From NCBI GenBank assembly GCA_018062285.1, contig JAGOSO010000005.1:2697-66696 (forward strand): 64,000 nt of DNA, in the 5' to 3' direction. A program made the translations under genes and the position numbers. A model generated the notes under the pieces. The model was not told where the DNA came from, ran no database searches, and was given only the letters and a program-made list of their open reading frames with translations. Positions 3,365 to 63,708 of this stretch are shown piece by piece (position 1 is the first letter of the stretch; each line of letters opens with the position of its first letter). The DNA is from Minisyncoccota bacterium. Lineage in GTDB: Bacteria > Patescibacteriota > Minisyncoccia > 2-02-FULL-40-12 > GWA2-44-9.

Positions 3365-3368
3365 GGGT

Positions 3369-10312: not shown

Positions 10313-10371
10313 TTTTTGTTATCACAGTATGGTGCAGATGTTCTGTTATTACTAAAATAATATTTACAAAT

Positions 10372-46607: not shown

Positions 46608-47226
46608 AAGTATTCATTATGGCATTGGCCACACACGCTTAAGGCGCATTCTTGGTTTGGTCGGAGACTCTGGGGGCTTAAGGGTTTTAGACGTCGGTTG
46701 TGCTAGCGGATATCTTGGTAAGCTGATCAAGGATAGGGGTAACAATGTTGATGGTGTTGAGATATCAGCTGCTGCGGCAGAGGAAGCTCGCAAGAAACTA
46801 GATTACGTTTATGTTTTAGACGTAGAGAAAGAATGGCCAGATGCTCTCCGGAAAAATGACTATGATCTATTGGTTTGCACAGAGGTTTTAGAACACGTTT
46901 TTGACCCATCAAAAGTCTTGGCTTCTGCTCGTGGGGCTCTTAAGGTCGGTGGCCATATCATCATATCAACTCCAAATTTTATGACCTGGACTCACCGAGT
47001 TAAGTTTTTGTTCGGTAAGTTTGCTTATACTGATCAAGGGATGTTGGACTTTGGTCATATTCGATTCTTCACCTACGCATACTTAAAGAAGATTTTGGCA
47101 GAAAATTATTTGGAAATAGAAGATGAAAGACACATTATATTTCCTGGTAAATTAACTAAAATCCTTAAGCTCTGGCCAAGCTTGTTTGCTGGCCAGTTCG
47201 TCCTAAAGGTTAAAAAAAATAAATAA
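46582..47226 (+). CDS. class I SAM-dependent methyltransferase
   Basis: LRVLDVGCASGYLG motif I. LLVCTEVLEHV. Confidence 0.75.
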   Translation: MREDYYQNKSIHYGIGHTRLRRILGLVGDSGGLRVLDVGCASGYLGKLIKDRGNNVDGVEISAAAAEEARKKLDYVYVLDVEKEWPDALRKNDYDLLVCTEVLEHVFDPSKVLASARGALKVGGHIIISTPNFMTWTHRVKFLFGKFAYTDQGMLDFGHIRFFTYAYLKKILAENYLEIEDERHIIFPGKLTKILKLWPSLFAGQFVLKVKKNK

Positions 47227-48422: not shown

Positions 48423-49400
48423 ATGTCTAAGATTATCTTTGGAAAGCTTGTTAGGGGCAAGAAGTTCTTGGTTACCGGTGGCGCCGGCTTTGTCGGCTCT
48501 CACATGATTGATTTGATTATAAAAAAAGGAGGGACAGTAATTTGTTTGGATAATTTATCCACTGGGAAAATGGATAACATTAAACATCTCGTTGGCTCTA
48601 GTAATTTTTCATTTTTTAATGTGGATGTTAATAATTTATCTAAAATAGAAAAGATATTTAAAGATGCGATGCCAGACTACGTAATGCATTATGCGGCCAT
48701 GGTTGGAGTGGAAAGAACAAGTCTTGACCCGCTAGGTGTTTTTGATGACATAGATGGCATAAAAAACATAGCTAAACTTTCTCAGAAGTATGGTGCTAAG
48801 AAGATTTTATTCGCCTCTTCTTCGGAGGTTTACGGTGAGCCAATAAAGATGCCAATGTCAGAGTATGATCGTTATCAGAGTCAGTGGCCCTACGGTTTAG
48901 TTAAAATATTTGCCGAGGTTTATCTGATTGCTTTTTCTAAAAAATTTAATATCCCTGTCGTTATTCCAAGATTCTTTAACGTCTATGGTCCCAGACAAGA
49001 CGATAGCCAGTTTGGTTTTGTTGTCCCTATATTTTTAAATAATGCTCTAGGTGGTGGGGAAATGGGTGTTTTTGGTGACGGTAGCCAAACAAGAAATTTT
49101 GTTTACGTTGATGATAATGTCAGGCTGTGCCTGGAAGCATTCTTCACAGAGGAAGCAAACGGTCGGCCTATGAATATTGGCTCGGGTAAGTCGGTTAAAA
49201 TAATAGACCTAGCCAAGACCATAAAGAAGATTATAAAGGAAGCAAAAATCGCTCATAAGCCATTAAGGATAGATGGCGAAATTATCTACAGAGTGCCAGA
49301 CGTAACATTTATGAAGAAGGCATTAAATGATTGGCCCAAAATAGAACTCGAAGAAGGATTAAAAAAGACAATAATCTATCTTAAAAAAAAGAATAAGTAG
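48423..49400 (+). CDS. NAD-dependent epimerase/dehydratase (extended SDR; UDP-glucuronate decarboxylase/UDP-sugar 4-epimerase-like)
   Basis: Rossmann motif VTGGAGFVGSH. YxxxK (YGLVK). 325 aa. Confidence 0.8.
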   Translation: MSKIIFGKLVRGKKFLVTGGAGFVGSHMIDLIIKKGGTVICLDNLSTGKMDNIKHLVGSSNFSFFNVDVNNLSKIEKIFKDAMPDYVMHYAAMVGVERTSLDPLGVFDDIDGIKNIAKLSQKYGAKKILFASSSEVYGEPIKMPMSEYDRYQSQWPYGLVKIFAEVYLIAFSKKFNIPVVIPRFFNVYGPRQDDSQFGFVVPIFLNNALGGGEMGVFGDGSQTRNFVYVDDNVRLCLEAFFTEEANGRPMNIGSGKSVKIIDLAKTIKKIIKEAKIAHKPLRIDGEIIYRVPDVTFMKKALNDWPKIELEEGLKKTIIYLKKKNK

Positions 49401-49426: not shown

Positions 49427-50560
49427 ATGAGAATTACATATCTAGCCAATGTTAGACTTCCGACAGAAAGAGCTTATGGAATACAGATAATTAATATGTG
49501 TCGAGCTTTTTCGTTGGCCGGTATAGATGTTTCACTTTTTTTCCCCTACCGTATTAGCAGGGCAATTAGGCAAAATATATTTGAGTATTATTCTGTTGAG
49601 GAAACTTTTAAAGCAAAAAGATTATGGGCGCTAGATTTTTATTTACCTAGTTTTTTAAATAAATTTGCGTTCCACCTCAAGAATTTTTTCTCAGCAGTTA
49701 GTCTGGCTTGGTGTGCCTTTTTTGCGAAGAGCGATTTTGTTTATTCCAGAGACGAGTTGCCTATATTTTTATTGAGTTTTTTAAGAAATAATTTGTGCTT
49801 TGAGGCGCATACATTTTCTGATGCTCGCAGATTTTATTATCGTAGGTTTAAAAATAAAAAAGTCAGAATTATTGTCATAAGCGATTCATTGAGACAGGTT
49901 TTTATACGAGAAGGTTTTGACCCAGTGAATATTATGGTGGCTCCAGATGCTGTTGATTTGGAAGTTTTTGGAAAACAATTATCTAAGACAGAATCCAGGG
50001 TGGGTGTGGGGCTGCCATTGACGGGGGACATCGTTATGTATTCCGGGCACCTTTTTGAGAAAAAAGGTGCCATCACGCTGGCTGAGTCTGCCCGCTATTT
50101 GCCAGACACCTTCTTTGTTTTTATTGGTGGAACAGAACGCGGGATTAATCAATTTAATAAAAAATATTCTAGTCGTAAAAACATAATAATTGTTGGTCAC
50201 AAGCCACACAAAGATATTCCTCGGTATCTTCAGGCGGCAGATGTTCTGGTTTTGCCAAACTCTGGGGAAGAATCAGTTTCGGACAAATTCACATCTCCCT
50301 TAAAATTGTTTGAGTACATGGCTTCGCGTCGGGTAATTATTGCTTCGGATTTGCCTGTTTTGAGAGAAGTTCTTAATGAAAGTAATTCTGTTTTGGTTGC
50401 GCCAGATAGCCCTGATATTTTGTTTAAAAATATTAAATATGTTTTGAGTAATCCTGAGCTTCAAGATAAATTATCTAATCAGGCTTACGAAGATGTTTCT
50501 GGTAAAACCTGGAACAGGCGAGCTGTTAATATTGCTAACTTTTTGTCTCAATTTGTTTAG
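49427..50560 (+). CDS. glycosyltransferase family 4 (GT-B)
   Basis: C-terminal LKLFEYMASRRVIIASDLPVLREVL donor-binding region. Confidence 0.7.
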   Translation: MRITYLANVRLPTERAYGIQIINMCRAFSLAGIDVSLFFPYRISRAIRQNIFEYYSVEETFKAKRLWALDFYLPSFLNKFAFHLKNFFSAVSLAWCAFFAKSDFVYSRDELPIFLLSFLRNNLCFEAHTFSDARRFYYRRFKNKKVRIIVISDSLRQVFIREGFDPVNIMVAPDAVDLEVFGKQLSKTESRVGVGLPLTGDIVMYSGHLFEKKGAITLAESARYLPDTFFVFIGGTERGINQFNKKYSSRKNIIIVGHKPHKDIPRYLQAADVLVLPNSGEESVSDKFTSPLKLFEYMASRRVIIASDLPVLREVLNESNSVLVAPDSPDILFKNIKYVLSNPELQDKLSNQAYEDVSGKTWNRRAVNIANFLSQFV

Positions 50561-50648: not shown

Positions 50649-52133
50649 ATGGAAAAACCAATTTGTCTGATCATCCCGCCATCTCCATTTTTGTTGGATG
50701 AGCGGGTCTTTATGCCCTTGGGGATTCTCCGGGTGGCTGCGGTCTTGAGGGATCGTGGCTACAAGCCCGATGTCCTGGATCTTTCCGGGATAACCAACCC
50801 ACGGCAAGTCTTGCTGACCTACTTTTCGTCAGCTTCCAAAAACACTGTTTACGGTATTACCGCCACAACGCCTCAGTTGCCAGCGGCGGTATCTATCAGC
50901 GAAGAAATTCGCAAAAATAGTCCATCCTCAAAAATCATCTTGGGTGGTCCCCATGTAACCCTGACTCACGCTGCTTGGCGGCGAGAGAGAGATCGTGGAA
51001 TTGTTGGTGGCCGAGCCGGAAAGAGTTTCGACAAGATCTTAAGTAGCTTCGATGTTTTTGTTGCTGGTGATGGGGAAGAGGCGATCTTCTTGGCTCTTGA
51101 GGATTCTGCCCCAAAGTTTATTGATGCTGATGACCCAAAGTCGCAGCTATTTTTGAACGAGGAGCAACTGTCTACATTACCATTCCCTGCGAGGGATTTG
51201 GTTGATGTCGCAAGTTATCATCATGACGTTGACGGCAAAAACGCTTTAAACGTCATTTTGCAGCTTGGTTGTCCCTTTGGTTGTGGATTTTGTGGCGGAC
51301 GCCTTTCGCCATCATTCCGAAGGATCAGGCTTCGTTCTACCCAGAACGTGCTTGATGAGATCAGGCACATCTACCATGAATACGGCGCCGAGGCGCTGAT
51401 GTTCCATGATGATGAGCTCAATGTTAATCCAGAGTTTTCCAATCTTCTGCGTGGTCTGATCAAGCTCCAAGAGGAATTGGGAGTCTCATTTCATTTCCGT
51501 GGATTCATCAAGTCACAGCTTTTAACCGAAGAGCAGGCTGATTTGATGTACCAGGCTGGTTTCCGGAGAATATTGGTTGGCTTTGAAGCTGCCAGTCCCA
51601 AGATTCTCAAAAACATTCGTAAAAGTGCGACACTTGAACAGAACACGCGATGCATGGAGATTGCGGATAGGTATAACCTGAAAGTTAAGGCCCTCATGTC
51701 TATCGGTCATCCTGGTGAATCGCCAGAGACGATTGAAAACGTGAAAGACTGGCTCATCAATGTTCGTCCTCACGATTTTGACGTTACTGTCATTACTACC
51801 TACTTTGGTACACCGTATCATGATGATGCAGTGCCGCACCCTACGCTTCCGGGCGTTTGGGTCTACACCATTAACAATGATCGTTTGTACAGTCTTGATG
51901 TTGATTTCTCGGTTACAGCCGAGTACTACAAAGGGAAGCCGGATGGCGGGTATGTCGCTTATGTTTACACGGACTATATCAGCTCAGAAGAGCTGGTTGT
52001 AAGACGAGACTGGGTTGAGAGGGAAGTTCGAACGAAGCTGGGCATCCCTTACTATCAGGCCGGCCAGATTGCTCAGTACGAGCACTCGATGGGCCAAGGC
52101 CTTCCCGGTCACATCTTGAGAAGAACACTTTGA
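50649..52133 (+). CDS. B12-binding-domain radical SAM protein (class B radical SAM; possible methyltransferase)
   Basis: N-terminal cobalamin-binding-like Rossmann region. CPFGCGFC (CxxxCxxC). SD GGAG upstream of the ATG at 50649. The track GTG start is at 50616. Confidence 0.75.
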   Translation: MEKPICLIIPPSPFLLDERVFMPLGILRVAAVLRDRGYKPDVLDLSGITNPRQVLLTYFSSASKNTVYGITATTPQLPAAVSISEEIRKNSPSSKIILGGPHVTLTHAAWRRERDRGIVGGRAGKSFDKILSSFDVFVAGDGEEAIFLALEDSAPKFIDADDPKSQLFLNEEQLSTLPFPARDLVDVASYHHDVDGKNALNVILQLGCPFGCGFCGGRLSPSFRRIRLRSTQNVLDEIRHIYHEYGAEALMFHDDELNVNPEFSNLLRGLIKLQEELGVSFHFRGFIKSQLLTEEQADLMYQAGFRRILVGFEAASPKILKNIRKSATLEQNTRCMEIADRYNLKVKALMSIGHPGESPETIENVKDWLINVRPHDFDVTVITTYFGTPYHDDAVPHPTLPGVWVYTINNDRLYSLDVDFSVTAEYYKGKPDGGYVAYVYTDYISSEELVVRRDWVEREVRTKLGIPYYQAGQIAQYEHSMGQGLPGHILRRTL

Positions 52134-52134
52134 T

Positions 52135-52170
52135 CTCTAAGGACGGACAACTTCCGTTCTTAGAGATTTT
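52135..52170. terminator. bidirectional terminator between convergent genes
   Basis: CTCTAAGGACGG-ACAACTT-CCGTTCTTAGAG-ATTTTTTATTTT. Confidence 0.6.
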
Positions 52171-52806
52171 TTATTTTCTAGAATCTAGATATTCTAGAAT
52201 TTCTTTGACAGACAGAATGTCGCCTTTTTTGTGGTAGGTCTCTATCCTTTTTGTTTCTTCTTGGATTAGTTCTTTGCGGCTAGCCTCTAGTACACCCTGG
52301 GAATGAAAAACATTTGCTTGCCAGTCTTTTGGGTCTGATGGTTTGTTGTATATTTTTATACTTAAGTTCTTTTTAATTATCGAACTAACCAAGGTGGAGA
52401 AGGCTCTTACTTGGTGAAAGGGAGGGCAAATAATGGTTGCAGAACTTATCTTTTTCTGAGACATGTAATCCGTTAATGCCTCAGATTCGGTTAGGGTATT
52501 TAAATCAGCCGGTATATCAAGCGGAATAATATTTTCGGCAGGAACTCCGTTTTTTAATAGAGCACTAAGCCATGTATGGTAACCAGGATATCCATGGTTC
52601 GTCGTCCCTTGATCAATCATTATTTTTGTCGAGACTCCCATTTTATTCCACAATTCCGAGACTTCATCCAGCACCAACGATTCATTGTCTTTTGTTTGTC
52701 CAAATATGTAAATAATTTCTGTTTGTTCAGGTCTAATGTCACAAAGAATCCTGGTGTATAGCTCTAATGTTTGGTCTTGACCTTTGAAAAAAATAGATGT
52801 TTCCAT
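52171..52806 (-). CDS. hypothetical protein, possibly DUF218/YdcF-like
   Basis: 211 aa. Weak resemblance (GYPGYHTW...NTLTESEA) to the YdcF/DUF218 family. Low confidence. Confidence 0.35.
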   Translation of the reverse strand: METSIFFKGQDQTLELYTRILCDIRPEQTEIIYIFGQTKDNESLVLDEVSELWNKMGVSTKIMIDQGTTNHGYPGYHTWLSALLKNGVPAENIIPLDIPADLNTLTESEALTDYMSQKKISSATIICPPFHQVRAFSTLVSSIIKKNLSIKIYNKPSDPKDWQANVFHSQGVLEASRKELIQEETKRIETYHKKGDILSVKEILEYLDSRK

Positions 52807-52883
52807 GTTTGATTGTGCTCAATAATGAGGTATATTTGGTATACCAAAGTATATTACAGGTGGGCAGGCTAGTCTATTGAGCT

Positions 52884-53798
52884 ATGTACAGAAATTTTAA
52901 GAAGGAATTGTTTTTCTTGTCGAACTTATTGACCCGTCGTTATCCGGTGGGTTTTTATTTTAGTTATTTTAAATATCGTTTCTTCGGAGGCATGGTATTG
53001 GCCAATTTGTCACCCTATACCAAAAAAGAATTTGATAATTTTGAGGTCCACATGTTGTGCCAAGAACCTGATGTCCAAATGATTGAATGGTCAATTCGTT
53101 CTTTCTTAAAACATACAGGTTTTTATCCAAAGTTTATTATCCATGATGATGGCACAATGACCCAAAGATCAGGCAGGATTTTAGAAGAAAGATTTTCTAG
53201 TGTTGAGGTGATATTTAAATCCGAAGCCAGGAAAAGGCTACAAACAAAACCTGGCTATACGTCGCTTGTTAAAAAATTTGATGAACAGGGGAACAAGGTT
53301 TCGCTTCAGCTCATTGATTGTTATTTGCTGAGTAACACAGAAAAAGTTGTTCTTTTGGATGGGGATGTTTTGTTTTTTAAAAAACCTATCGAGCTCATTG
53401 ATTTTATTAATGGTAAAACCTCCTTTGACGCAATGGTTTCAAAACAGTACGGATCTTATGATTTAAAAGTTAAAAAAGAATATTCTGAAAAATACCATCT
53501 AGAAGACAGGCAAGCGGGTTTAATGAATCCGGGCCTAATTTCCATTAACAAGTCGGCCTTTCCTCAAGAAAAATTCATAGAGTTCCTAGAGAATACAGAA
53601 AGACCGTATGGGGATTATTTTTTGCCCATGTCGGGCTGGGGGAGTCTAATCGCTCAGACTAATTATTCTTTTTTCCCAGAGGATGGCTATATCATTAAGG
53701 GTCGCCCCACTAATCAGACAACCATGAAGCATTTTACTAGTCCACGCCGACATGAGTTCTATGCCTATGGTATCGACTTGTGCCGGATTGCTAAATAG
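52884..53798 (+). CDS. hypothetical protein, possible GT-A-fold nucleotide-sugar transferase
   Basis: LLDGDVLFF (DxD-like). Lies inside the glycan locus. Start uncertain: alternative Mets at 52992 and 53052. Confidence 0.35.
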   Translation: MYRNFKKELFFLSNLLTRRYPVGFYFSYFKYRFFGGMVLANLSPYTKKEFDNFEVHMLCQEPDVQMIEWSIRSFLKHTGFYPKFIIHDDGTMTQRSGRILEERFSSVEVIFKSEARKRLQTKPGYTSLVKKFDEQGNKVSLQLIDCYLLSNTEKVVLLDGDVLFFKKPIELIDFINGKTSFDAMVSKQYGSYDLKVKKEYSEKYHLEDRQAGLMNPGLISINKSAFPQEKFIEFLENTERPYGDYFLPMSGWGSLIAQTNYSFFPEDGYIIKGRPTNQTTMKHFTSPRRHEFYAYGIDLCRIAK

Positions 53799-53825
53799 TA
53801 TATTTTATGGTATTATAATAAACAA

Positions 53826-54806
53826 ATGACTTCTCCTCAACTATCTATTGTAGTGCCACTTTTTAATGAAGAAGAGGCTTTCCCATTGTTACTGAATAAA
53901 CTTCAGGAAGTTTGTGGTGGGCTTGGCAAGACTTATGAATTTGTTTTTGTTGACGATGGCTCAACCGACAAAACCTATAGTTTGATACAGGATGCTTCTA
54001 AAAATAATGCAAACATAAAAGCAATAAGGTTTTCGAGAAATTTTGGACATCAAGCCGCCTTTAACGCCGGCATGGATTTTTCAAGCGGAGAGATGGTCGT
54101 CACAATGGATGGGGATCTTCAGCACCCACCAGCCCTAATCCCCGAATTTATTAAAGCTATTGAACAGGGCTTCGACATAGTTATTGGAGAAAGGACTCAA
54201 AACAAGCAGAATTCGGTCCTCCGAGCTTTTGTTGGAAAATTATTTTATAAATTCTTAAGTGCGATTACTAACCTTGAATTTAAAAATGCATCTGACTTCG
54301 CGATTTATAATAGAAGGGTTATTTCTGTTCTAAAGCGCTTACCAGAAAAAGAAAGATTTTTGCGTGGTCTCGTTCAGTGGGTGGGTTTCAAAAAGAAGTA
54401 TATTCAATATGTTGCAGAAGAAAGAGTTGCTGGTGCTCCTAAATACACAATACGCAGGCTTGTCAGGCTAATCATGAGTGGGGTGACATCATTTTCAGCT
54501 TTTCCTTTACGCTTGGCTTTTTGGACAGGGACATTCATCTTTATATTTAGTATTATTTTTGCTGGTTATGTTGCCGTGGATCATTACACAAACCCCAATC
54601 CATTGCTGGCTGGCTGGGCTACTGTAGTGATACTTATATTGCTACTTGGCAGTATTCAACTCTTGGTTTTGGGCGTTGTTGGTGAGTACCTGTACAAGAT
54701 GTTTAATGAAATAAAGGGTCGCCCGCTTTATATTGTTTCTGATTCTTTGAATATGGATAATGATTCCTCTTCGCTCTCATCGTATGGATTAAACGGTCTT
54801 AGGTAA
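53826..54806 (+). CDS. polyprenyl-phosphate glycosyltransferase, GT2 (ArnC/GtrB-like) with 2 C-terminal TM helices
   Basis: LSIVVPLFNEEEAF, VDDGSTDKT, and TMDGDLQHPP. C-terminal TM helices. Confidence 0.8.
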   Translation: MTSPQLSIVVPLFNEEEAFPLLLNKLQEVCGGLGKTYEFVFVDDGSTDKTYSLIQDASKNNANIKAIRFSRNFGHQAAFNAGMDFSSGEMVVTMDGDLQHPPALIPEFIKAIEQGFDIVIGERTQNKQNSVLRAFVGKLFYKFLSAITNLEFKNASDFAIYNRRVISVLKRLPEKERFLRGLVQWVGFKKKYIQYVAEERVAGAPKYTIRRLVRLIMSGVTSFSAFPLRLAFWTGTFIFIFSIIFAGYVAVDHYTNPNPLLAGWATVVILILLLGSIQLLVLGVVGEYLYKMFNEIKGRPLYIVSDSLNMDNDSSSLSSYGLNGLR

Positions 54807-54811
54807 AATTC

Positions 54812-55612
54812 ATGGCTAAAATTAGAATTATTGCCGATGATTTAGGTCTCAATGAGCGGGTTAACGAAGGTATTTTGATAGCCCTCAAGAGTGGGTGGAT
54901 AAGCGGAGCATCTCTTATGCCAGCTGGGGATGCTTTTTTTGATGCCGTGAAATTAATTAAGGAATCACCTCAATTTGATATTGGGGTTCATGTTGTTTTG
55001 GTCGAAGAAACCCCTCTTTCTAAAAAAGAAGATATTACTACGCTTGTCGGCAAGAATGGATTTTTGCATAAAGATCATAGGGTGTTTTTTATTAGATATG
55101 TTTTGGGGCTTGTCGATATTAATGATATAGAAAAAGAATCCCGTCTTCAGATTAAAAGATGTTTGGATAGTGGTGTGACCCCCAAGTTTATTAATAGCCA
55201 TCAACACTTACATCTTTTGCCAAAAGTGTTAGATGTTTTCATAAAATTGGCCAAAGAATACGATATCCCGTATATTAGAATTGTGAATGAACCCTTTGGT
55301 GCTAGCGGTGGTATTGTTCGTCGGGTCCAATCTCTTGTGCTACGCTCTTTTTCCCATTTTGCTTATTCGAAGATCGATAGGAATGGGCTAAAGAGGAACG
55401 ATCTGTTTGTTGGTTTTTTAAATGCTGGCGGTATCACTAGTGGTGACATAAATTTTGCTAAAGAATTAAGCTATACCCGGCCCACCAAAATCATAGAAGT
55501 TGGTTGCCACCCTGGTTTTGAAAATGATGAACTACGTGAACGCTACAAGGATTGGGGAAACTATGGTTGGGAAAGAGAACTCAAGGTTCTAGAAGAGTCT
55601 AGTGATAAATAA
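54812..55612 (+). CDS. ChbG/HpnK (YdjC) family carbohydrate deacetylase
   Basis: N-terminal IRIIADDLGLNERVNEGI. Internal GVHVVL and HQHLH metal-binding motifs. Confidence 0.7.
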   Translation: MAKIRIIADDLGLNERVNEGILIALKSGWISGASLMPAGDAFFDAVKLIKESPQFDIGVHVVLVEETPLSKKEDITTLVGKNGFLHKDHRVFFIRYVLGLVDINDIEKESRLQIKRCLDSGVTPKFINSHQHLHLLPKVLDVFIKLAKEYDIPYIRIVNEPFGASGGIVRRVQSLVLRSFSHFAYSKIDRNGLKRNDLFVGFLNAGGITSGDINFAKELSYTRPTKIIEVGCHPGFENDELRERYKDWGNYGWERELKVLEESSDK

Positions 55613-55614
55613 AA

Positions 55615-56370
55615 ATGGAATCAAATTTTTATAAAACTTATTTTGAAGTAGAGAAATCGCATTGGTGGTTTCAGGGGCGGAGAAGCTTGATTAGATGGCT
55701 TCTCTCTGTTTATGTAAAAGATAAAAATGATTTTAATATTTTGGATATTGGTTCTGGTTCTGGCTACCTAGTTGGGGTTTTACAGAAAGATGGTTACGAA
55801 GTTTCCGGTGTGGACGCCTCTCTTGAGGCAATAGAATTTGGGACTAGTAAGGGAATTAAAAATCTTTCATTAGCTTCTGGCGATAAGTTGAATTTCCCCG
55901 ACGCTAGCTTCAAGTGTGTTTTATGTTTGGATACGATTGAACATATCAAGGATGATTCATTTGCTGTAAGAGAAATAGAGCGTCTCCTCGCCCCTGGTGG
56001 CTATGGTATTTTGACGGTGCCTGCATATCAGTGGATGTGGGGAGTCCAGGATGAGGTTGCCCATCATTATCGTAGATACTCTATGAAGAGTTTTTTGAAT
56101 TTGTTGAAGTCTGCCAAAAATCTTAAGGTTGTCCGAAAGAGTTATTTTAATACTTTTTTGTTTCCGGTTGTTGCCGGGGTTAGATTGGTTGGTAAATGGT
56201 TTAAAATCGAGGGGCGAGAATCCGATTTTGATATTCATAGTAATCTAATTAATACTTTGCTATTATTTATATTCAGGGCAGAGATTTGGCTTCTTAGGGT
56301 GATTGGCTATCCATTTGGTGTCTCAATCTTGTTGGTTCTGAAGAAAAATGAGCAATCCATTCAAAGATAG
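55615..56370 (+). CDS. class I SAM-dependent methyltransferase
   Basis: ILDIGSGSGYL motif I. LCLDTIEHI. Confidence 0.8.
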   Translation: MESNFYKTYFEVEKSHWWFQGRRSLIRWLLSVYVKDKNDFNILDIGSGSGYLVGVLQKDGYEVSGVDASLEAIEFGTSKGIKNLSLASGDKLNFPDASFKCVLCLDTIEHIKDDSFAVREIERLLAPGGYGILTVPAYQWMWGVQDEVAHHYRRYSMKSFLNLLKSAKNLKVVRKSYFNTFLFPVVAGVRLVGKWFKIEGRESDFDIHSNLINTLLLFIFRAEIWLLRVIGYPFGVSILLVLKKNEQSIQR

Positions 56371-58015
56371 GAGTTTTAATATATTTCTCGTAATTGTTGC
56401 GGTGTTTTTTTTGACACGATTGTTGGCTGTTGGCCAGATTTATCATCAAGATGAATATCGTTGGGCGGTTTTAACCAACCCTGTTTTTAATGCCTTTGTC
56501 AGTCCCCATCCTCCATTAACTAAATACTTCCTAAGATTTGTGGGGGAGTCATTTGGGTTTTTTAATCTTCGATACGCCATATTGTTCTTTAGTTTTTTAA
56601 ATTTGATTTTAGTTCATAAGGTTATTAAGAAAATAACCGGGCAAGTAAACATTGCGCTGTTGGGCTCTGCTCTCTTTGTTTTAAGTGCCTATGGTGCAAT
56701 TGCTGGTTTGCAGATAGATATAGACGGTGCAATTTTGCCATTTTTTGGCCTGCTTTCTTATTATGCTTATCTTCATGTTTTTGAAGATAAGAAGCGTTAT
56801 TTGTGGTGGGGTGTTTTTGCTCTGGCCTTAATCGGTGGGTTTTTAAGCAAAATAAGTTTTATCCTTTTCTTGTTGGCCATTATCGCTGACTACATATTTG
56901 TTTTGTTTGATTCTGGGAGATTTGATGCTAGGAAGATTTTTATTAAAGTTGCTAAGTTTGGCGGCACAATATTTTTAGTTGGTTTAGTGTTTTATTTTAT
57001 TTATTCGGATCGTCTCAGTAATGTTATTCAATACGCAGAGCATTTTAAATCTTTGAATTTTGGGTCACGAGCTTATTTTGATTTGGCGTTTAAGGTTATG
57101 AAATCTTTGGTCTGGTTATCACCCCTTCTTTTGTTGCCGACTGTCGCAGGTCTTTTTTCAAGAGAGATCTTTAAGAAATACAGATTCTGGTATCTCTATT
57201 TATTCTTTAATCTTATTTTCTACCTAGTTTTATTTGATTTTACCAATCTTACCATTGAGAGATATCTAATGTTTTTAATTATCCCAACGGCAATTATAAG
57301 CAGTGATGTTTTGTTTGGTTGGTTTAGAGATTTTGATTTTAAAAAATACAGCAAGACCATTATTTTTAGCCTACTCGTTTTTGTTGGTTTTACAGCTTTT
57401 GTTTTAAGTGTGCATCATGTTGCCTTGCCACTTAATCCCAAATCGGAATATGTTAATCAGATTAAACACCTAGATTTTAATTTCTTGCTGCCCTTAACAG
57501 GTGGTTCTGGCCCGGTTGGTTTCTATTTTTCAGCTAGCTTCATTTTGATATCTTGGATAGTCTCAATTATTGCTATTTTAGGTGCTGTGACTAGCAAAAA
57601 ATTGAGGAATCTTTCCATTATTATTTTTGTCATTATTGGTCTGGGGTATAACATCTTATTTTTAAATGAATATTTGTTTGGGAGTATTTTTGGTAGCGTC
57701 CCAAATATCACCAGAGATACCGTCAGTTATATTCAATCAGACCCAAAGATAACAAAAGTTATTACCTATTATGATATTGGAGCATATGACCTGACGGTTA
57801 TGGGTAAGTATTACTCAAGATTCTATACTGCGCCAAGTAGAGATTATACAAAAAAAATAACAGAATTCCGCGGGCAATATATGGTCGTAGATTTTCCGGG
57901 TATAGATAAAAATTCTTTGTACTGGAAGCTTATCACTCGTTGTCCAACAGTTAAAGAATTTAAAGACAAAGAGATAAATTCTTATGTTTTTGATTGTGGT
58001 TATGTGTATAAATAA
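56348..58015 (+). CDS. GT-C membrane glycosyltransferase (ArnT/PMT-like, GT39/GT83-type)
   Basis: 555 aa. About 12 TM helices. The first periplasmic loop has YHQDEYRW (DE motif). Confidence 0.65.
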   Translation: MSNPFKDRSFNIFLVIVAVFFLTRLLAVGQIYHQDEYRWAVLTNPVFNAFVSPHPPLTKYFLRFVGESFGFFNLRYAILFFSFLNLILVHKVIKKITGQVNIALLGSALFVLSAYGAIAGLQIDIDGAILPFFGLLSYYAYLHVFEDKKRYLWWGVFALALIGGFLSKISFILFLLAIIADYIFVLFDSGRFDARKIFIKVAKFGGTIFLVGLVFYFIYSDRLSNVIQYAEHFKSLNFGSRAYFDLAFKVMKSLVWLSPLLLLPTVAGLFSREIFKKYRFWYLYLFFNLIFYLVLFDFTNLTIERYLMFLIIPTAIISSDVLFGWFRDFDFKKYSKTIIFSLLVFVGFTAFVLSVHHVALPLNPKSEYVNQIKHLDFNFLLPLTGGSGPVGFYFSASFILISWIVSIIAILGAVTSKKLRNLSIIIFVIIGLGYNILFLNEYLFGSIFGSVPNITRDTVSYIQSDPKITKVITYYDIGAYDLTVMGKYYSRFYTAPSRDYTKKITEFRGQYMVVDFPGIDKNSLYWKLITRCPTVKEFKDKEINSYVFDCGYVYK

Positions 58016-58029
58016 TTTTTAATATTAAT

Positions 58030-59166
58030 ATGTCTTTTGTTTCTAAGATTAAAAATGGCCGATTGTTTATAAAATGTTTGGGTTATTCTCTTTTTCGTCA
58101 ATCTCCAAAAAAAACACCTCCTGATATCCGGTCGGTTATTGTTGCGCCGCTAGCCCAATTAGGAGATATGGTTTGTACTACCCCACTTTTTCGTGCTTTA
58201 AAGAAAAATAAACCAAGTTGGCACTTATCTGTGCTTGGTAAGCCCAACTATAAAGAATTATTAGCAAATAACGTTGATGTTGATGAGTATGTAAATAGCG
58301 GGGATCCTGACCATGTAATAAAAATCTTAAGAAACAAGACATATGATGTTGGCTTATTAACTATGCCGTCATTTGGTGGCCTGGCCATCCTTTATTTGGC
58401 GGGAGTTAAAATGATAATTGCCCCAAAGGTGACTGGGGGATTTAGTCCACAACAAACTTTATTGTATCGGTTGTTGCATAGACTAGTTGTTTCTGTCGAG
58501 TATCAGTACGATCGTTATGTCCCAAGAGAGCTATTAAAACTCCTAGAACCTTTGGGAATATTATCGCATACAACAAAAAAATACTTGGGCTACAGTTCAG
58601 AGGCGAGCCAGTGGGCTGATCAGCTTATCCAGGAAAAAGTTAAACCAGAGAAGTTGATAATTGGTTTATCTGTTTCTTCTGGTAACAAAATAAAAAATTG
58701 GGGAAGTGAAAAATTTGCTCGTTTGAGTGAGTATCTTTATAAAAAATACGAAGCTAATATTGTTTTAATAAGTTCTCGGGTCGACAAAGAAGAGGTCTCG
58801 GGATTTTTTAAAGAATTAGACTCAGATGTTCCTGTGCTAAGTGTTTCAGACATAACCCTTGATCAGCTTAAAGCATTGATAGCAAAGTTTAGCATGTTTG
58901 TCGGAGTTGATACGGGGCCAATTTATATCGCTGAAGCTTTTAATATTCCTACAGTAGATATTATTGGTCCAGTTTCAGAAAAAGAACAACCTCCTGTCGG
59001 CCCACTCAATCGAATTGTTTACCTAAAGAATCGCAAGTCTGCACCGGTACATATCTTTAATGCCCGTATTTTTGATAATGAGGAGGCTCGGCGCCAGTCT
59101 CAAGAAATATCATTTGAAATGGTTGCCTCCGAAATCGATAGTCTAATTCCTATGTTGATTAAGTAA
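58030..59166 (+). CDS. glycosyltransferase family 9 (heptosyltransferase-like)
   Basis: N-terminal SVIVAPLAQLGDMVCTTPLFRALKK matches the GT9 N-terminal consensus. 378 aa. Confidence 0.6.
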   Translation: MSFVSKIKNGRLFIKCLGYSLFRQSPKKTPPDIRSVIVAPLAQLGDMVCTTPLFRALKKNKPSWHLSVLGKPNYKELLANNVDVDEYVNSGDPDHVIKILRNKTYDVGLLTMPSFGGLAILYLAGVKMIIAPKVTGGFSPQQTLLYRLLHRLVVSVEYQYDRYVPRELLKLLEPLGILSHTTKKYLGYSSEASQWADQLIQEKVKPEKLIIGLSVSSGNKIKNWGSEKFARLSEYLYKKYEANIVLISSRVDKEEVSGFFKELDSDVPVLSVSDITLDQLKALIAKFSMFVGVDTGPIYIAEAFNIPTVDIIGPVSEKEQPPVGPLNRIVYLKNRKSAPVHIFNARIFDNEEARRQSQEISFEMVASEIDSLIPMLIK

Positions 59167-59172
59167 GAATTG

Positions 59173-59212
59173 AAAAAGCGGGGACCCGTAGGTCCCCGCC
59201 AGTGTTTTTTCT
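59173..59212. terminator. bidirectional terminator
   Basis: GCGGGGACC-CGTA-GGTCCCCGC followed by CAGTGTTTTTTCT. Confidence 0.7.
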
Positions 59213-60491
59213 AAAGCGGCTTTTCGCCGTCGACACTGATGATTGTTGGAACTGGCAGCGGCATGATGAGTTTGCCGCCCCGCTCAAGGAACTGCCGTTC
59301 TCTTTCCTTGAATTCAGCCGCAAAGTGCCACGGCAGAACCAGGAAGTAATCTGGCCGTTCGCTTCGGGCTTGTTCTTCGGAGATGATAGGGATTCCTGTT
59401 CCGATGGTGTACAGACCCCACTTGTCTTTGTTTCTCTCCGCAGCGGCCCCGATGAGCTTGCGGTCAAGATCAAAGTATTGAAGCAGGGTGTTCCCCTTGG
59501 TCGAGGCACCGTAGACGTAGATCTTTTTGCCGTAGAAAATTTCTTCTTGAATGAAAAACTTGATAGTTTTCTTGATTCCTTCGACCCTTTGGGAGAATGC
59601 CTGGTAGGCCTGGGCAGAATCAAGACCAAGGTTGGCCTCGTACAGACGCAGGCTTTCAAGGCGAACCTCGGAACCGATTGGTGCTTGAACCTCTCGGCTT
59701 TCTTTGTGCTTGATGTAGATCCGGAAGCTTCCACCGTTGATGTCGTTGATCTCGACATCGAAAACCTGAAGGCCGTGACGGACCAGGAGGTATTCCAGGG
59801 AAGCGAGGGAATAGTACTCCAGATGTTCGTGACAGATGTTGTCAAAAGCGTTTTGGGACAGCATCAAAGGTAGGTAGCTCATCTGAATGATGAACACACC
59901 TTCAGGATCGAGGCACTTTGCCACGTCTTTGACGAATCCGTTTGGGTCCTCCAGGTCGTAAAACATCGCGATTGCCGTGATGCCCTTGGCCTGAATTTTG
60001 CCAAACTTCTTTGCCCAAATGTCATGACTGAAAAAGTCGTTGAAAACGACGGCCGCATTCTTTTCAGTGTAGGGGATCAGGTTGCGGGCCGGCTCAAAGG
60101 CCACTGTCATCAGATCTTCGATTCCGTAGCTCTTGAGCAGGGTGCCGTCGTTGGCACCGATGTCGATCACGAAATCGCCAGGGTTGAGGCGGACAAGGTT
60201 TTTGACACGCTGAGCAATTGAGAACAGCTCATTTGTCATTGTCTTGTTCACGCCAGACCGGTACCAGTAGTTTCGGTACATGTCTTCGTGGGAAACTGTG
60301 TGGCGAAGCTGGAGTAATCCGCAACCACGATGTTCAGTAGCACAAAGAACCATTTCAAGAGGCTCTTGCTGTTTTGCTTGGGCTTCCTTGGTGAAGTCTG
60401 ACACGCAGAGCTTCCCAAGAGATAGGATTGGGGTAAGGGTCATTTGACCACAAACCCGGCATGATGTACGGGTCGTCGTTGGATTGCTCAT
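59211..60491 (-). CDS. NDP-sugar C-methyltransferase-like protein (TylCIII/TcaB9 family: N-terminal Zn ribbon + SAM MTase + C-terminal domain)
   Basis: N-terminal CRVCG...C...C. VIDIGANDGTLL motif I. DNICHEHLEYYS is conserved in sugar 3-C-methyltransferases. The start is set at the ATG with AAGGAAAGGA SD. The track start is a TTG at 60545. Confidence 0.7.
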   Translation of the reverse strand: MSNPTTTRTSCRVCGQMTLTPILSLGKLCVSDFTKEAQAKQQEPLEMVLCATEHRGCGLLQLRHTVSHEDMYRNYWYRSGVNKTMTNELFSIAQRVKNLVRLNPGDFVIDIGANDGTLLKSYGIEDLMTVAFEPARNLIPYTEKNAAVVFNDFFSHDIWAKKFGKIQAKGITAIAMFYDLEDPNGFVKDVAKCLDPEGVFIIQMSYLPLMLSQNAFDNICHEHLEYYSLASLEYLLVRHGLQVFDVEINDINGGSFRIYIKHKESREVQAPIGSEVRLESLRLYEANLGLDSAQAYQAFSQRVEGIKKTIKFFIQEEIFYGKKIYVYGASTKGNTLLQYFDLDRKLIGAAAERNKDKWGLYTIGTGIPIISEEQARSERPDYFLVLPWHFAAEFKERERQFLERGGKLIMPLPVPTIISVDGEKPL

Positions 60492-60583: not shown

Positions 60584-61300
60584 ATGAAGGATATCGTCAT
60601 TATCCCAACTTATAACGAAAAAGATAATATTGAACCACTTGTTCGCGAGGTTTTTGCTACCGTGCCCGGTATTCATATTATGGTAACAGACGATAGTTCC
60701 CCAGATGGTACTGGGCAGATAGTGGAAAGACTCCAAGGTGAATTCCCAAAATTGAAGTTGTACAAGCGTTCAGAAAAGAATGGTTTAGGTGCGGCTTACA
60801 TAGCGTCATTCGCCAAAATCTTGTCTGAAGAAATTGATGTTGAACACATCATAATGATGGACGGTGATTATTCATTGCATCCTCGGTATTTGCCAGAAAT
60901 TTTAAGATTGGGGGAGAATCACGATATGGTGATTGGCTCTCGTTATATAAATGGTGGCCGTATTGAAGAATGGACATTTAGAAGACGTGTCTTAAGTTAT
61001 GGGGCGAGTATCTATTTGCGTATTCTTTTGAGTCCTAAGATTAGGGATTGGACTTGTGGCTACTGCTGCATAAAAAAATCAGCCCTTCAGAAGATTAATC
61101 TTAAAGAAATTACTTTCACTGGGTACGCATTTATTAGCGGATTAAAATACTATATCCTTAAATCTGGGGCAGATGTTGTGGAGACACCAATAACCCTAGA
61201 GGCTCGTCGTGGTGGTGAATCTAAGATGTCAGGATTCGTAATTAAGGAGGGGATAATTGGACCTTGGCAGATATTGCTAAAAAACCTAAGAAGTCGATAG
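60584..61300 (+). CDS. GT2 polyprenol-phosphate sugar synthase (Dpm1/CsbB-like)
   Basis: IVIIPTYNEKDNI, VTDDSSPDGT, and MDGDYSLHP (DxD). Confidence 0.8.
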   Translation: MKDIVIIPTYNEKDNIEPLVREVFATVPGIHIMVTDDSSPDGTGQIVERLQGEFPKLKLYKRSEKNGLGAAYIASFAKILSEEIDVEHIIMMDGDYSLHPRYLPEILRLGENHDMVIGSRYINGGRIEEWTFRRRVLSYGASIYLRILLSPKIRDWTCGYCCIKKSALQKINLKEITFTGYAFISGLKYYILKSGADVVETPITLEARRGGESKMSGFVIKEGIIGPWQILLKNLRSR

Positions 61301-63708
61301 TGTCTGTTATGATTATAAACAAAAAAACAGGTTTGATTTTATTGGCTAGTGTTGTGATGTTGGTGACCCTTTTTATTCCGCAGCTGTTTTTGAATCAAGC
61401 GTATTCTAATGGAGATGCTTTATTCGCTTTTTATCCCGCACTATCTTTTTATGCTAATCAAATAAGTTTGGGCGGTAATTTTTTGTGGTCTCATTCAATT
61501 TTGTCGGGGTTCCCGACTTATCTTGATTTGGTTGGCGGTTTTTATTCTCCGGTCACTCATTTTATTTTTAGCCACTGGAGCGTTGTTGCGGGTTACAATT
61601 TGGAAATATTTTTTAGTACTTCTCTTCTGTTTTTATTTTCTTATCTTTTTGCAAGACAATTAAAAATTTCTCAAGAAGGTTCTTTGTTGGTCGCGATATC
61701 TTATTCTTTCGGTTTTCATATGGGGCCGTGGAATAACAATATCACTGTTGTTAATGCGATGTTTGTTTTGCCAATGCTTCTTTTTTGTTTGGCGAAAGTT
61801 GGAGAGGGTAAGTACTGGTCGATTTTATTGGGCGGAGTTTTAACTGGTTACGCCTTAATCTCTGGCCAGCCGCAATGGGTTATCTTGGGTTTTGTTGGGG
61901 GAGGATTATATGTTCTGTTTAATGCGTGGAAAGATATTGTAAGTTTTAAATTTTCTCAGAAGGCTTTAATTTTAATTGGAAGTATTTTGGTGATGGCTGT
62001 TTTGGGTTTTTTGATTTCAGCTTTTCAGATTTTGCCATCACAGACAATAACTGCCCTGAGTGGACGCTCTGGTGGCTTGAGTTTCTCAGCTGCTCAAATT
62101 AATAGCCAGACCCCTTTTGACTGGCTTTGGTACTTACTGCCAGACTTAGGTTTTAAATACATCAACGGTCAAGAACCAACCTTGTATCTTGGTATTTTGC
62201 CATTAATTTTAGCTATCTTTGCTTTTTTCAAAACTAAAGGAGAGAACGAGTATTCAAAATTTGCTATTTGGCTTTTTGTTTTTGGTATAATTGCCGCATT
62301 TAAATATTCACCCCTGTTTTGGGTGATACATCAATTGCCAGTGTTCGGGTTTTTTAGAGGCTCAGACAGATGGATGTATATAGGTAATTTAGGGGTGGCA
62401 ATCCTGGCAGGTATTGGTTTGGATGCACTTCGTGTTCAAATTTCGAAAGATGTTATTTCTAGTTTAAAGAAATTTTTGGCATGGTTTGGCGGTTTTGTTG
62501 TGGTGTCGGCAAGTGTCGCCAATGTAATGTTTTTAATTTTTTCTAAGCGTTTTGAGATTTTCTTGTATAGATACTATGACTTGCATTATTATGCCCAATC
62601 AACCCACTTACCATTGGAGCATTATCATAACAGCATTAAATCTCTCGTAGATGACATATTTTGGAATATAAGTTTTTTGAATATCCGTTTCGTCTTAGCA
62701 TTGTTGTTTATTTTAGTTGGTTATTTATTTTTAAAAAATATTCAACAATCAAATAAACTGTCTTCTCGTCAGGTCGTTTTTATTATCTCTGCTTCTTTTA
62801 TAAATTTAGCCGTACTTAACTTTAATTATTATCAAATAATACCAAGTGCCTTGGTTGAAAGTAGGCCCGAACTCGCATCTTTTATTTCACAAAACATAAA
62901 CATGACTAACCCTGAAAGGTATTTTACTGTTATGCCTGGCCCAGCGGTTAATGAGATATTGCGTAGTCCAAGGGTGGGGGAAGTGACAAAGGGTGACCAG
63001 GTGGAATTCGAACGTGGAATGCTGGTTGTTAATGTTGGGATGCAATACGGGATTGATACTATTGATGGGTATAATAACTTAATGCCACAAAGGAGTGCCA
63101 AGATGCTTTCAGTCCTTGGGAGCGAGAGAACTAATATGTCTGGTTTGGCTGATAAAAAAGAAAATGTCGATGACAAGCTTAAGGAAATTTCCTCCCGCCT
63201 CCCACTACTCTCCATGTTGAACGTTAAGTATATTGTCTCCGCCTACGAACTCCCGTCATCTTCAAATCTGGTACTAATACACACAGCCCTAGTTACACGC
63301 TTTAAGATACCAATGTATTTGTATGAGAATAAGCTTGTTCTCCCAAGAGTCTACCTGGCCAATAGCATTGTCGGTATTCCAAGTGATGATGACGCTGCTT
63401 TTTTGGCAATTACTAATCAATCTAATGATTTCTCCAAGACTACATATCTAGAATGTGCAGATTGCCAGCCCAACCAACCTTCACCCAAGGATTCAATCAA
63501 AATCAATAAATACTCAGATGGCTTTCTTGGTGTGTCGGCCAACATCGCCAATGGTCGCTGGCTTGTCTTCTCAGAATCCAATCTCCCGGGCTGGAGTGTT
63601 ACAATAGATGGGCAACCAGTTGAGTCTGTCATGGCTAACTATCTATTCCATGGTCTGTATGTGCCTAAAGGGGAGCATGATATTCAATTTAATTATGTGG
63701 GGATATAG
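61264..63708 (+). CDS. YfhO-family large membrane protein (GT-C-like)
   Basis: 814 aa. More than 12 TM helices plus a large C-terminal extracytoplasmic domain. It immediately follows a Dpm1/CsbB-like GT2, as in the CsbB-YfhO arrangement. The start could be the internal Met at 61309. Confidence 0.65.
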   Translation: MADIAKKPKKSIVSVMIINKKTGLILLASVVMLVTLFIPQLFLNQAYSNGDALFAFYPALSFYANQISLGGNFLWSHSILSGFPTYLDLVGGFYSPVTHFIFSHWSVVAGYNLEIFFSTSLLFLFSYLFARQLKISQEGSLLVAISYSFGFHMGPWNNNITVVNAMFVLPMLLFCLAKVGEGKYWSILLGGVLTGYALISGQPQWVILGFVGGGLYVLFNAWKDIVSFKFSQKALILIGSILVMAVLGFLISAFQILPSQTITALSGRSGGLSFSAAQINSQTPFDWLWYLLPDLGFKYINGQEPTLYLGILPLILAIFAFFKTKGENEYSKFAIWLFVFGIIAAFKYSPLFWVIHQLPVFGFFRGSDRWMYIGNLGVAILAGIGLDALRVQISKDVISSLKKFLAWFGGFVVVSASVANVMFLIFSKRFEIFLYRYYDLHYYAQSTHLPLEHYHNSIKSLVDDIFWNISFLNIRFVLALLFILVGYLFLKNIQQSNKLSSRQVVFIISASFINLAVLNFNYYQIIPSALVESRPELASFISQNINMTNPERYFTVMPGPAVNEILRSPRVGEVTKGDQVEFERGMLVVNVGMQYGIDTIDGYNNLMPQRSAKMLSVLGSERTNMSGLADKKENVDDKLKEISSRLPLLSMLNVKYIVSAYELPSSSNLVLIHTALVTRFKIPMYLYENKLVLPRVYLANSIVGIPSDDDAAFLAITNQSNDFSKTTYLECADCQPNQPSPKDSIKINKYSDGFLGVSANIANGRWLVFSESNLPGWSVTIDGQPVESVMANYLFHGLYVPKGEHDIQFNYVGI

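Follow-up and report, generated by a model that had tools for sequence, protein, structure and literature searches.

A Pacebacteria-type surface-glycan locus with an orphan B12-domain radical SAM protein and a member of an Asp/Cys subfamily of TylC3/TcaB9-like C-methyltransferases

The stretch of 64,000 nucleotides of Minisyncoccota bacterium DNA considered here (contig JAGOSO010000005.1, positions 2,697 to 66,696; hereafter the window) carries, from about 37.6 kb to its end (about 63.7 kb), a single long surface-glycan locus, in which two genes encode candidate sugar-tailoring enzymes: a radical S-adenosylmethionine (SAM) protein with a B12-binding domain (50649-52133, + strand) and a nucleoside diphosphate (NDP)-hexose C-methyltransferase (59211-60491, – strand). 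We hold with moderate confidence that the region, taken as a whole with both tailoring functions, is a conserved Pacebacteria-type surface-glycan assembly locus, rich in glycosyltransferases of families 4 and 2 (GT4 and GT2) and provided with two GT-C-type membrane transferases. Both genes are stable components of the locus of this lineage, not a functional pair. Each comes from a large family, widespread among bacteria of the candidate phyla radiation (CPR), and as ordinary equipment of environmental glycan loci they are common in nature rather than anomalous; neither the radical SAM orthogroup nor the C-methyltransferase subfamily has a characterized member. A preliminary description, made from the sequence alone, had reported both genes and read them as antibiotic-type enzymes acting together. 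Its observation is confirmed, since the coordinates are exact, both genes are intact, their matches have E-values far beyond chance and Pfam places them in a genuine glycan locus, while its interpretation is partly supported.

The open reading frames (ORFs) of the locus encode, according to Pfam, about eight GT4, three GT2, one GT8-like and one GT9 transferase, together with a short-chain dehydrogenase/reductase (SDR), two class-I methyltransferases, a YdjC deacetylase, a YfhO protein and two more polytopic membrane proteins. Three ordinary methyltransferases had been counted with the locus in the preliminary description; two do lie in it (46582-47226 and 55615-56370), the third (12908-13519) about 25 kb outside. 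The window is low-GC Patescibacteria DNA (GC 0.41) and includes the CPR marker DUF5671 among its genes. The same gene order extends over about 26 kb on a contig of a Pacebacteria-like relative (assembly GCA_034680565.1; loci L026/L109 of our set), where the radical SAM protein is 84% and the C-methyltransferase 73% identical to the window copies and where the C-methyltransferase gene is likewise the only inverted one. In L109, which is otherwise syntenic, there is no equivalent of the 211-residue ORF at 52171-52806, of the GT2 at 41522-42247 or of the SDR at 48423-49400.

The class-B radical SAM layout reported for the first enzyme is borne out by two Pfam domains, both above their cut-offs, the B12-binding domain PF02310 (43.1 bits, cut-off 32.1; residues 33-132) and the radical SAM domain PF04055 (87.3 bits, cut-off 29.5; residues 214-380), and by the motif CPFGCGFC. 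The mechanical ORF begins at a GTG codon (50616), upstream of the ATG at 50649. Cys208, Cys212 and Cys215 are the sole invariant cysteines among 40 homologues, so that no auxiliary cluster is expected. An AlphaFold (AF2) model built from the family alignment (predicted local distance difference test score 90.2, predicted TM-score 0.90) gives full-length Foldseek matches to TsrM (E 1e-21, TM-score 0.60), AprD4 (E 1e-20, TM-score 0.68/0.74), MgmA (E 9e-19), CysS, TokK and OxsB. The protein is not of the HemN or elongator type, as HemN (1olt) comes only at Foldseek rank 32 with a TM-score of 0.30 and no Elp3 or HemN model is found among its Pfam or NCBIfam matches. Judged from sequence and predicted structure, it is built, like the B12-radical-SAM group, of a Rossmann domain and a barrel, and stands outside the named families of that group.

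Methylation by this protein, which the preliminary description had implied, is plausible as a hypothesis, and cobalamin would be its putative cofactor, by analogy with TsrM, MgmA, CysS, TokK, MoeK5, GenK and HpnJ, with which it has domain order and predicted fold in common. TsrM gives the best Foldseek E-value, the true cobalamin methylases MgmA (PDB 9ccb; PMC11796369), CysS and TokK match over the full length, PF02310 exceeds its gathering score, and most characterized members of the group are methylases (PMC9204698, PMC12931638). The other possibility, to which we give a smaller but appreciable weight, is that the protein is a non-methylase of the AprD4 or HpnJ type, which dehydrates, deoxygenates, epimerizes or ring-contracts a sugar and whose Rossmann-like domain may not bind cobalamin. 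AprD4, the 1,2-diol dehydratase of apramycin biosynthesis (6fd2), is first among the PDB matches both with the single sequence (E 1e-13) and with a 40-sequence profile (E 2e-21), followed by MgmA and TsrM; it has the same N-terminal Rossmann-like domain and radical SAM barrel, and itself acts on a sugar ring, that of an aminoglycoside pseudodisaccharide, without cobalamin. CPR bacteria, moreover, are generally unable to make cobalamin, and we know of no sequence motif that tells cobalamin binders from non-binders in this group. HpnJ and BchE, the second and third NCBIfam matches, are non-methylases, as is OxsB (PMC9204698), and AprD4 and ArsL are placed in the B12-radical-SAM similarity network with the same layout and no cobalamin binding (PMC12931638). 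On the other hand, identity to AprD4 is only about 19%, and the AprD4 model is matched with 63.5 bits for a cut-off of 500. The remaining NCBIfam scores, given with their cut-offs, are PhpK 103.6/600, HpnJ 89/577.6, BchE 79.7/481, a ladderane-type lipid enzyme 72/360, BzaD 63.7/450, MgmA 60.6/360, HpnR 56.1/650 and TsrM-type 26.6/500.

The stage at which the protein may act is suggested by the genes around its relatives. Homology searches gave at least 4618 matches among the 8000 candidates scored, the best 120 of which are 56-100% identical, and orthologues 52-60% identical occur in Patescibacteria, Acidobacteriota, Delta-, Gamma- and Alphaproteobacteria, Omnitrophota, Nitrospinota and Saccharibacteria. 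All the loci examined that carry an orthologue are glycan loci. The adjacent gene, overlapping or abutting the orthologue, encodes in some of them (L003/4, L006, L011, L013/14/16) a GT2 of about 240-250 residues, and in others (L001/2, L005, L009) an EPS-type polyprenyl glycosylphosphotransferase (299-305 bits, above the cut-off). The window GT2 at 41522-42247, whose best NCBIfam matches are AglJ-, ArnC- and PpgS-like, is 39-47% identical to the former GT2s and 68% identical to an incomplete copy in L007/8. In one case (P0101, L001 1639-3996) the orthologue is part of a natural fusion protein that includes a domain like that of glucose-1-phosphate cytidylyltransferases; its operon also encodes a phosphoglycosyltransferase, another cytidylyltransferase-like protein and a CDP-glucose-4,6-dehydratase-like SDR. 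In the CPR relatives (Yanofskybacteria, L007/8; L109) the radical SAM gene ends a string of GT2 and GT4 genes as it does in the window, and the two window GT4s upstream of it (47229-48410 and 49427-50560) cluster with the GT4s that flank the Yanofskybacteria orthologue. A deltaproteobacterial locus (L010, 5825-17151) has, beside the orthologue, two AsnB-type amidotransferases and two to three ORFs that fall into the B12-radical SAM cluster, phmmer confirming two of these as distant homologues.

Because the orthologues lie in glycan loci and next to partners for polyprenyl loading, sugar chemistry at a nucleotide- or lipid-linked stage is suggested. MoeK5, GenK, HpnJ and AprD4 act on assembled or lipid-linked glycosides, and, like those of MoeK5 and HpnJ, the window gene stands beside enzymes making lipid-linked sugars. 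All four are counted among the sugar-modifying members or neighbors of the group (PMC9204698, PMC12931638). By this analogy a polyprenyl-linked sugar is favored as the substrate and C-methylation as the reaction. Four observations count against this assignment: the protein scores below every curated NCBIfam cut-off, including those of the named B12-radical-SAM families; its best global superposition in Foldseek is with AprD4, neither methylating nor cobalamin-binding; about half of the loci have heterogeneous neighbors around the orthologue; and the type of GT2 tied to them is not present in the locus of the syntenic relative. A literature search for O-antigen or polysaccharide loci with B12-radical SAM enzymes found nothing relevant, and to our knowledge no characterized member of the group comes from bacterial surface-polysaccharide assembly.

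Downstream of the radical SAM gene, a four-gene block (53826-58015) encodes an ArnC/PgfS-like GT2, the YdjC deacetylase, a class-I methyltransferase and an 11-helix GT-C-like protein, and is kept in L026/L109. It is probably a separate amino-sugar decoration module and looks like the ArnC/ArnD/ArnT- or FlmF2/NaxD/FlmK-type systems for the attachment of a deacetylated, here possibly N-methylated, amino sugar: the combination of ArnC-like GT2, YdjC deacetylase and polytopic membrane protein is common to all three, while the methyltransferase sets the window block apart. This comparison, as well as that with CsbB/GtrB systems made below, draws on family matches below equivalog cut-offs and on general knowledge of those systems. 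The radical SAM protein, the ArnC-like GT2 and the YdjC protein, encoded within 5 kb and kept together in L026/L109, might alternatively form a trio similar to HpnI, HpnK and HpnJ that converts a lipid-linked N-acetylhexosamine into a deacetylated, ring-contracted (cyclitol-like) head group. This we consider highly improbable and the analogy was rejected, since none of the scores comes near its equivalog cut-off (HpnJ 89 against 577.6; HpnK 133 against 232.6) and the YdjC gene adjoins no radical SAM orthologue in the other lineages examined, a small sample. The window contains no hopanoid genes either, and the GT2, deacetylase, methyltransferase and 11-helix protein already make a self-sufficient block of the ArnC/ArnD/ArnT kind.

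The second enzyme has the three-domain architecture of the TylCIII-like C-methyltransferases, as had been proposed from its zinc ribbon and DNICHEH block: an N-terminal zinc ribbon, a class-I SAM domain and a C-terminal Methyltransf_14 domain, matched by PF08421 (38.8 bits), PF13489 (52.4 bits) and PF08484 (152.1 bits), each above the cut-off. Its alignment with MtmC (4rv9, 'D-mycarose 3-C-methyltransferase', E 7e-60) runs from end to end, and KijD1 (5t64) and TcaB9 (3ndi) also align over the full length, both with E about 1e-33 (about 5e-33 in the TcaB9 match). Residue conservation was assessed in an alignment of 120 close homologues with the chains of MtmC and TcaB9. The four cysteines of the zinc site are conserved in 118-120 of the 120 sequences; Tyr75 (Tyr76 of TcaB9), Glu222 and His223 are invariant (120/120), and so is the intact SAM motif DIGANDG (residues 110-116). 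The enzyme is thus, as far as its residues tell, a true NDP-hexose C-methyltransferase that depends on SAM and Zn, and it shares with MtmC, TylC3, TcaB9 and KijD1 the three domains, the zinc site, the SAM motif and the equivalents of Tyr76, Glu224 and His225.

Two pocket residues, on the contrary, distinguish it throughout from that group. The position of TcaB9 His181 is Asp in 120/120 homologues and that of Tyr222 is Cys in 116/120; in PDB chain alignments these are the positions altered in two deposited TcaB9 variants, His to Asn in 4e2w and Tyr to Phe in 4e2x. A further difference is the second zinc pair, Cx6C in the window enzyme and CxxC in the MtmC/TylC3/TcaB9/KijD1 group. Because Asp and Cys are fixed, or nearly so, in the homologues while C-methyltransferases of another subfamily found in L006 and L015 (26-29% identical to the window enzyme) keep His and Tyr, the window enzyme is assigned on sequence grounds to a distinct Asp179/Cys220 subfamily, internally very conserved (mean column identity 69%), of the TylC3/TcaB9/MtmC family.

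This subfamily is large. At least 8000 protein matches and, in a metagenome scan, at least 600 matches were obtained; the best 120 proteins are all at least 58% identical, and one, named by NCBI as coming from a 'Candidatus Pacebacteria bacterium' metagenome-assembled genome, is 100% identical. The sources of the homologues are named Pacebacteria, Wolfebacteria, Ryanbacteria, Liptonbacteria, Parcubacteria and even Nanoarchaeota. The view that the two genes are antibiotic-type and unexpected in a reduced genome is therefore not sustained: thousands of homologues about 60% identical are among the matches listed, many of them named Pacebacteria, Wolfebacteria, Yanofskybacteria or Taylorbacteria, and the locus is syntenic in a second contig.

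For the neighborhoods, 80 C-methyltransferase loci were fetched by a peptide pattern that includes the Asp, and so describe the Asp subfamily only; ORFs were called in 79 retrieved metagenome loci and the neighbors were clustered. The commonest partner is an SDR, adjacent to the C-methyltransferase in 27/79 loci and within three genes in 39/79, followed by a small GT2 (adjacent in 11/79, within three genes in 15/79), a NUDIX protein of about 150 residues (within three genes in 15/79) and a DegT aminotransferase (11/79), and a typical gene string reads SDR, C-methyltransferase, NUDIX, SDR. On TIGR01472 (gmd, cut-off 415) the SDRs that were sampled reach 214-383 bits, three- to four-fold above any other NCBIfam model; one neighboring SDR is GDP-L-fucose-synthase-like (293 bits), and the best NCBIfam match of the NUDIX protein is GDP-mannose mannosyl hydrolase. 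Outside the CPR, then, the subfamily is, by its neighborhoods, embedded in pathways of GDP-mannose-derived 6-deoxyhexoses. Given these partners, a GDP-6-deoxyhexose route is indicated and not the dTDP-mycarose route, and we infer that GDP-4-keto-6-deoxy-D-mannose is methylated to a 6-deoxy-3-C-methylhexose of the virenose or evalose type.

A mycarose-type dTDP-2,6-dideoxy sugar pathway, the association first drawn in the preliminary description, finds no counterpart in the window, where Pfam searches of all long ORFs and tblastn revealed no 4,6- or 2,3-dehydratase, nucleotidyltransferase, aminotransferase or phosphoglycosyltransferase, and Pfam in particular no glucose-1-phosphate thymidylyltransferase, dTDP-glucose 4,6-dehydratase, 2,3-dehydratase or 3-ketoreductase. 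Probing by tblastn for the 4,6-dehydratase of GDP-mannose (GMD) and for Fcl, NUDIX, DegT, nucleotidyltransferase and phosphoglycosyltransferase proteins yielded nothing in the window except the SDR at 48423-49400. This sole SDR is GalE/UXS-like: its best PDB match is the UDP-glucose 4-epimerase 4zrm (E 2e-54), it resembles UDP-xylose synthases too, and NCBIfam gives it no gmd signal. The context thus differs from that of the MtmC/TcaB9 group, being of the GDP-mannose type or made of GT2 and GT-C proteins and not of a dTDP-2,6-dideoxy- or 3-amino-sugar pathway, and the window enzyme sits in a surface-glycan locus where those enzymes belong to antibiotic clusters. A closer parallel is CBU_0691 of Coxiella burnetii, a TylCIII homologue encoded beside GMD and Fcl in the lipopolysaccharide locus and proposed in silico to make virenose (PMC3539893). 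It too stands in a surface-glycan locus, and its partner set of GMD and GDP-fucose synthase is the one seen in the metagenomes; the window, however, lacks these partners, and the likeness is one of description and context to a pathway that is itself an in silico model.

In the CPR-type loci (the window, L026/L109, L028/29, L030 and L037) the C-methyltransferase is found with a soluble GT2 of 237-250 residues and a large membrane protein. The window GT2 (60584-61300), for which no transmembrane segment is predicted, has as best NCBIfam matches, all below cut-off, polyprenyl-phosphate hexose synthases of archaea and bacteria (AglJ, DPhHxTase, PpgS); it is orthologous to the copies beside the C-methyltransferase in the other CPR loci (37-79% identical), whereas it belongs to another orthogroup than the two remaining GT2s of the window. 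Similar GT2s are also present in L066, L085, L091, L092 and L106. The GT2 and the YfhO-family protein that follows it occupy the same position in L026/L109, and the pair recalls the three-component glycosylation by a CsbB/GtrB-type GT2 and a YfhO-type GT-C, unlike which it carries an attached C-methyltransferase.

In this setting the C-methyltransferase might do another job, namely C-5 methylation as in NovU, mainly 4-ketoreduction, the second activity of MtmC, or methylation of a different keto-sugar, an alternative that we judge rather unlikely. Two residues of its sugar pocket are unlike those of all solved enzymes; MtmC, the closest solved homologue, is described as bifunctional (PMC3539893); and there is no GMD near any CPR-type copy. 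It also has to be considered that the C-5 methyltransferases of the noviose pathway belong to the same family. The intact and invariant DIGANDG motif and Glu-His dyad, together with the strong association with GMD, Fcl and NUDIX genes outside the CPR, speak instead for 3-C-methylation of the GDP-linked keto-sugar. Weighing on the opposite side of this proposal, GDP specificity is deduced from gene neighborhood; no GMD, nucleotidyltransferase or 4-ketoreductase is found in the window or in the syntenic relative; none of the five CPR-type loci with C-methyltransferase and GT2 has a GMD nearby, so that the CPR substrate may differ from that of the other phyla; and the exchange of two pocket residues for Asp and Cys could alter regiochemistry or activity.

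The suggestion that the two enzymes act together is contradicted by their distribution: 0/80 loci of the C-methyltransferase subfamily carry a radical SAM orthologue, although five or six carry distant B12-radical SAM paralogues, and where L006 and L015 do have a C-methyltransferase close to the radical SAM orthologue, it is of the canonical His/Tyr subfamily. A functional coupling of the two genes was rejected for these reasons. Distant paralogues of the radical SAM protein were observed in the GDP-sugar/C-methyltransferase loci L034, L054, L084 and L091.

Both genes stand out by composition, with a G+C content at third codon positions (GC3) of 0.505 for the radical SAM gene and 0.616 for the C-methyltransferase gene against 0.31-0.39 in all their neighbors, and this invites the view that they are foreign, arrived recently by transfer and do nothing for the native glycan, the C-methyltransferase, a single inverted gene with no pathway partners in the window, being orphaned from its pathway. 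We find this very unlikely: the syntenic relative has both genes intact and at matching positions, and there too they stand above the rest in GC3 (0.57 for the radical SAM gene and 0.71 for the C-methyltransferase gene against about 0.42; the pair lies at 2973-4253 and 10628-12112 of L026). Their retention in a relative whose proteins are only 73-84% identical indicates that they have been kept over a long divergence. Moreover, high GC3 is shared by the window genes at 2116-3114 (tryptophanyl-tRNA synthetase), 3369-4130 (-), 5839-6867, 6883-7419 and 22731-23333. GC3 was accordingly rejected as proof of horizontal transfer, housekeeping genes being similarly high and the relative showing the same pattern; the excess may reflect old or repeated transfer of highly conserved genes, or, alternatively, codon selection.

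The features of the locus are collected in Table 1. Between the convergent GT9 and C-methyltransferase genes, a hairpin with a perfect 9-bp stem is likely, from its sequence, to be a bidirectional intrinsic terminator. A GT9 gene adjoins the C-methyltransferase gene also in L026, L043 and L058; downstream of the C-methyltransferase of L006 an HldE-like heptose kinase/adenylyltransferase was noted. At the upstream edge of the locus, the polytopic membrane protein of 505 residues could be a polymerase or a ligase. Farther upstream, the gene at 5839-6867 (GC3 0.54) encodes an ATP:guanido phosphotransferase with the N-terminal domain PF02807 and the catalytic domain PF00217 (256 bits), which by its sequence is of the true phosphagen (arginine) kinase type, unusual in a CPR bacterium. 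The regions 8113-11421 and 16103-19506 hold, consecutively, genes for a ceramidase-like protein (PF05875), a SET-domain protein, an AlkZ-like DNA glycosylase and a small RelA/SpoT synthetase, with phosphoketolase and acetate kinase farther along.

Table 1. Features of the surface-glycan locus and its edges (window coordinates; aa, amino acids; TM, transmembrane)
Position	Strand	Feature	Evidence or remark
32440-35832	.	1130-aa protein	no Pfam match; upstream edge of glycan locus
37647-39164	-	polytopic membrane protein, 505 aa	no Pfam match; upstream locus edge
41522-42247	+	small GT2, 241 aa	type found beside radical SAM orthologues elsewhere
46582-47226	+	class-I SAM methyltransferase, 214 aa	PF13489 71.5 bits; kept in L109
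47229-48410	+	GT4	Pfam; part of trio directly upstream of radical SAM gene
48423-49400	+	GalE/UXS-like SDR	Pfam; between the two GT4s upstream of radical SAM gene
49427-50560	+	GT4	Pfam; just upstream of radical SAM gene
50649-52133	+	B12-binding-domain radical SAM protein, 494 aa from ATG	intact; Pfam PF02310 and PF04055
51270-51293	+	CPFGCGFC, CxxxCxxC [4Fe-4S]/SAM motif, aa 208-215	read from sequence
52171-52806	-	unassigned ORF, 211 aa	no Pfam/NCBIfam match; between radical SAM and GT8-like genes
52884-53798	+	GT8-like protein, 304 aa	family search
53826-54806	+	ArnC/PgfS-like GT2, two C-terminal TM helices	Pfam, NCBIfam, TM prediction
54812-55612	+	YdjC deacetylase	best NCBIfam match HpnK, 133 bits
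55615-56370	+	class-I methyltransferase	Pfam
56348-58015	+	555-aa, 11-TM protein, GT-C-like	no Pfam match; YHQDEYRW in first loop
58030-59166	+	GT9 (LPS heptosyltransferase family)	PF01075 69.5 bits; convergent with C-methyltransferase
59167-59210	.	GC-rich hairpin GCGGGGACC-CGTA-GGTCCCCGC, perfect 9-bp stem, A-run and T-run flanks	read from sequence
59211-60491	-	C-METHYLTRANSFERASE gene: NDP-hexose C-methyltransferase, 426 aa	intact; Pfam, PDB alignments
59823-59843	-	DNICHEH block, aa 217-223	Glu222-His223 = TcaB9 Glu224-His225; Cys220 for TcaB9 Tyr222
59946-59966	-	MFYDLED block	Asp179 for TcaB9/MtmC His181
60318-60461	-	zinc ribbon Cys11, Cys14, Cys50, Cys57 (CxxC ... Cx6C)	aligned with TcaB9/MtmC zinc cysteines
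60584-61300	+	small soluble GT2, 238 aa, Dpm1/AglJ-like	Pfam, NCBIfam; divergent from C-methyltransferase
61264-63708	+	YfhO-family polytopic membrane protein, GT-C-type candidate	PF09586 74 bits; about 10 hydrophobic segments

A working scheme for the two enzymes can be outlined. By the mechanism of TylC3, TcaB9 and MtmC, the Glu-His dyad of the C-methyltransferase would deprotonate the carbon next to the 4-keto group of a precursor supplied by genes outside the window, and the resulting enolate would attack SAM. The Dpm1-like GT2 may then load the C-methylated sugar onto polyprenyl phosphate, and the YfhO protein would most likely transfer it, in a CsbB/YfhO-like fashion, to an extracytoplasmic acceptor outside the membrane. 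The radical SAM protein would most likely perform 5'-deoxyadenosyl radical chemistry on an unactivated sugar carbon, at the nucleotide- or polyprenyl-phosphate-linked stage, with C-methylation as the most probable outcome and dehydration or rearrangement as the main alternative. In its more general form the scheme is tentative and, in our estimate, possible rather than probable: a widespread orphan radical SAM enzyme would modify a polyprenyl-phosphate-linked sugar by C-methylation, deoxygenation or ring rearrangement, while, in the CPR, Asp/Cys C-methyltransferases would feed a C-branched sugar to a GT2/YfhO route. If true, a radical step on a polyprenyl-linked sugar would be one so far undescribed for bacterial cell-surface polysaccharides.

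CPR bacteria, or Patescibacteria, live attached to host cells, and we know of nothing established experimentally on their surface glycans. Radical SAM tailoring of sugars has precedents in antibiotics and hopanoids. C-branched sugars of surface glycans have theirs in Coxiella (PMC3539893). This locus, and thousands alike, predict that C-branched and perhaps radical-modified sugars are displayed on CPR surfaces, and they single out two targets for enzymology, the GDP-sugar-associated Asp/Cys subfamily of C-methyltransferases and the large orphan orthogroup of radical SAM proteins with a B12 domain, which is associated with enzymes for polyprenyl-phosphate loading. If the radical SAM protein is a methylase, scavenging of cobalamin by these reduced-genome bacteria would be implied.

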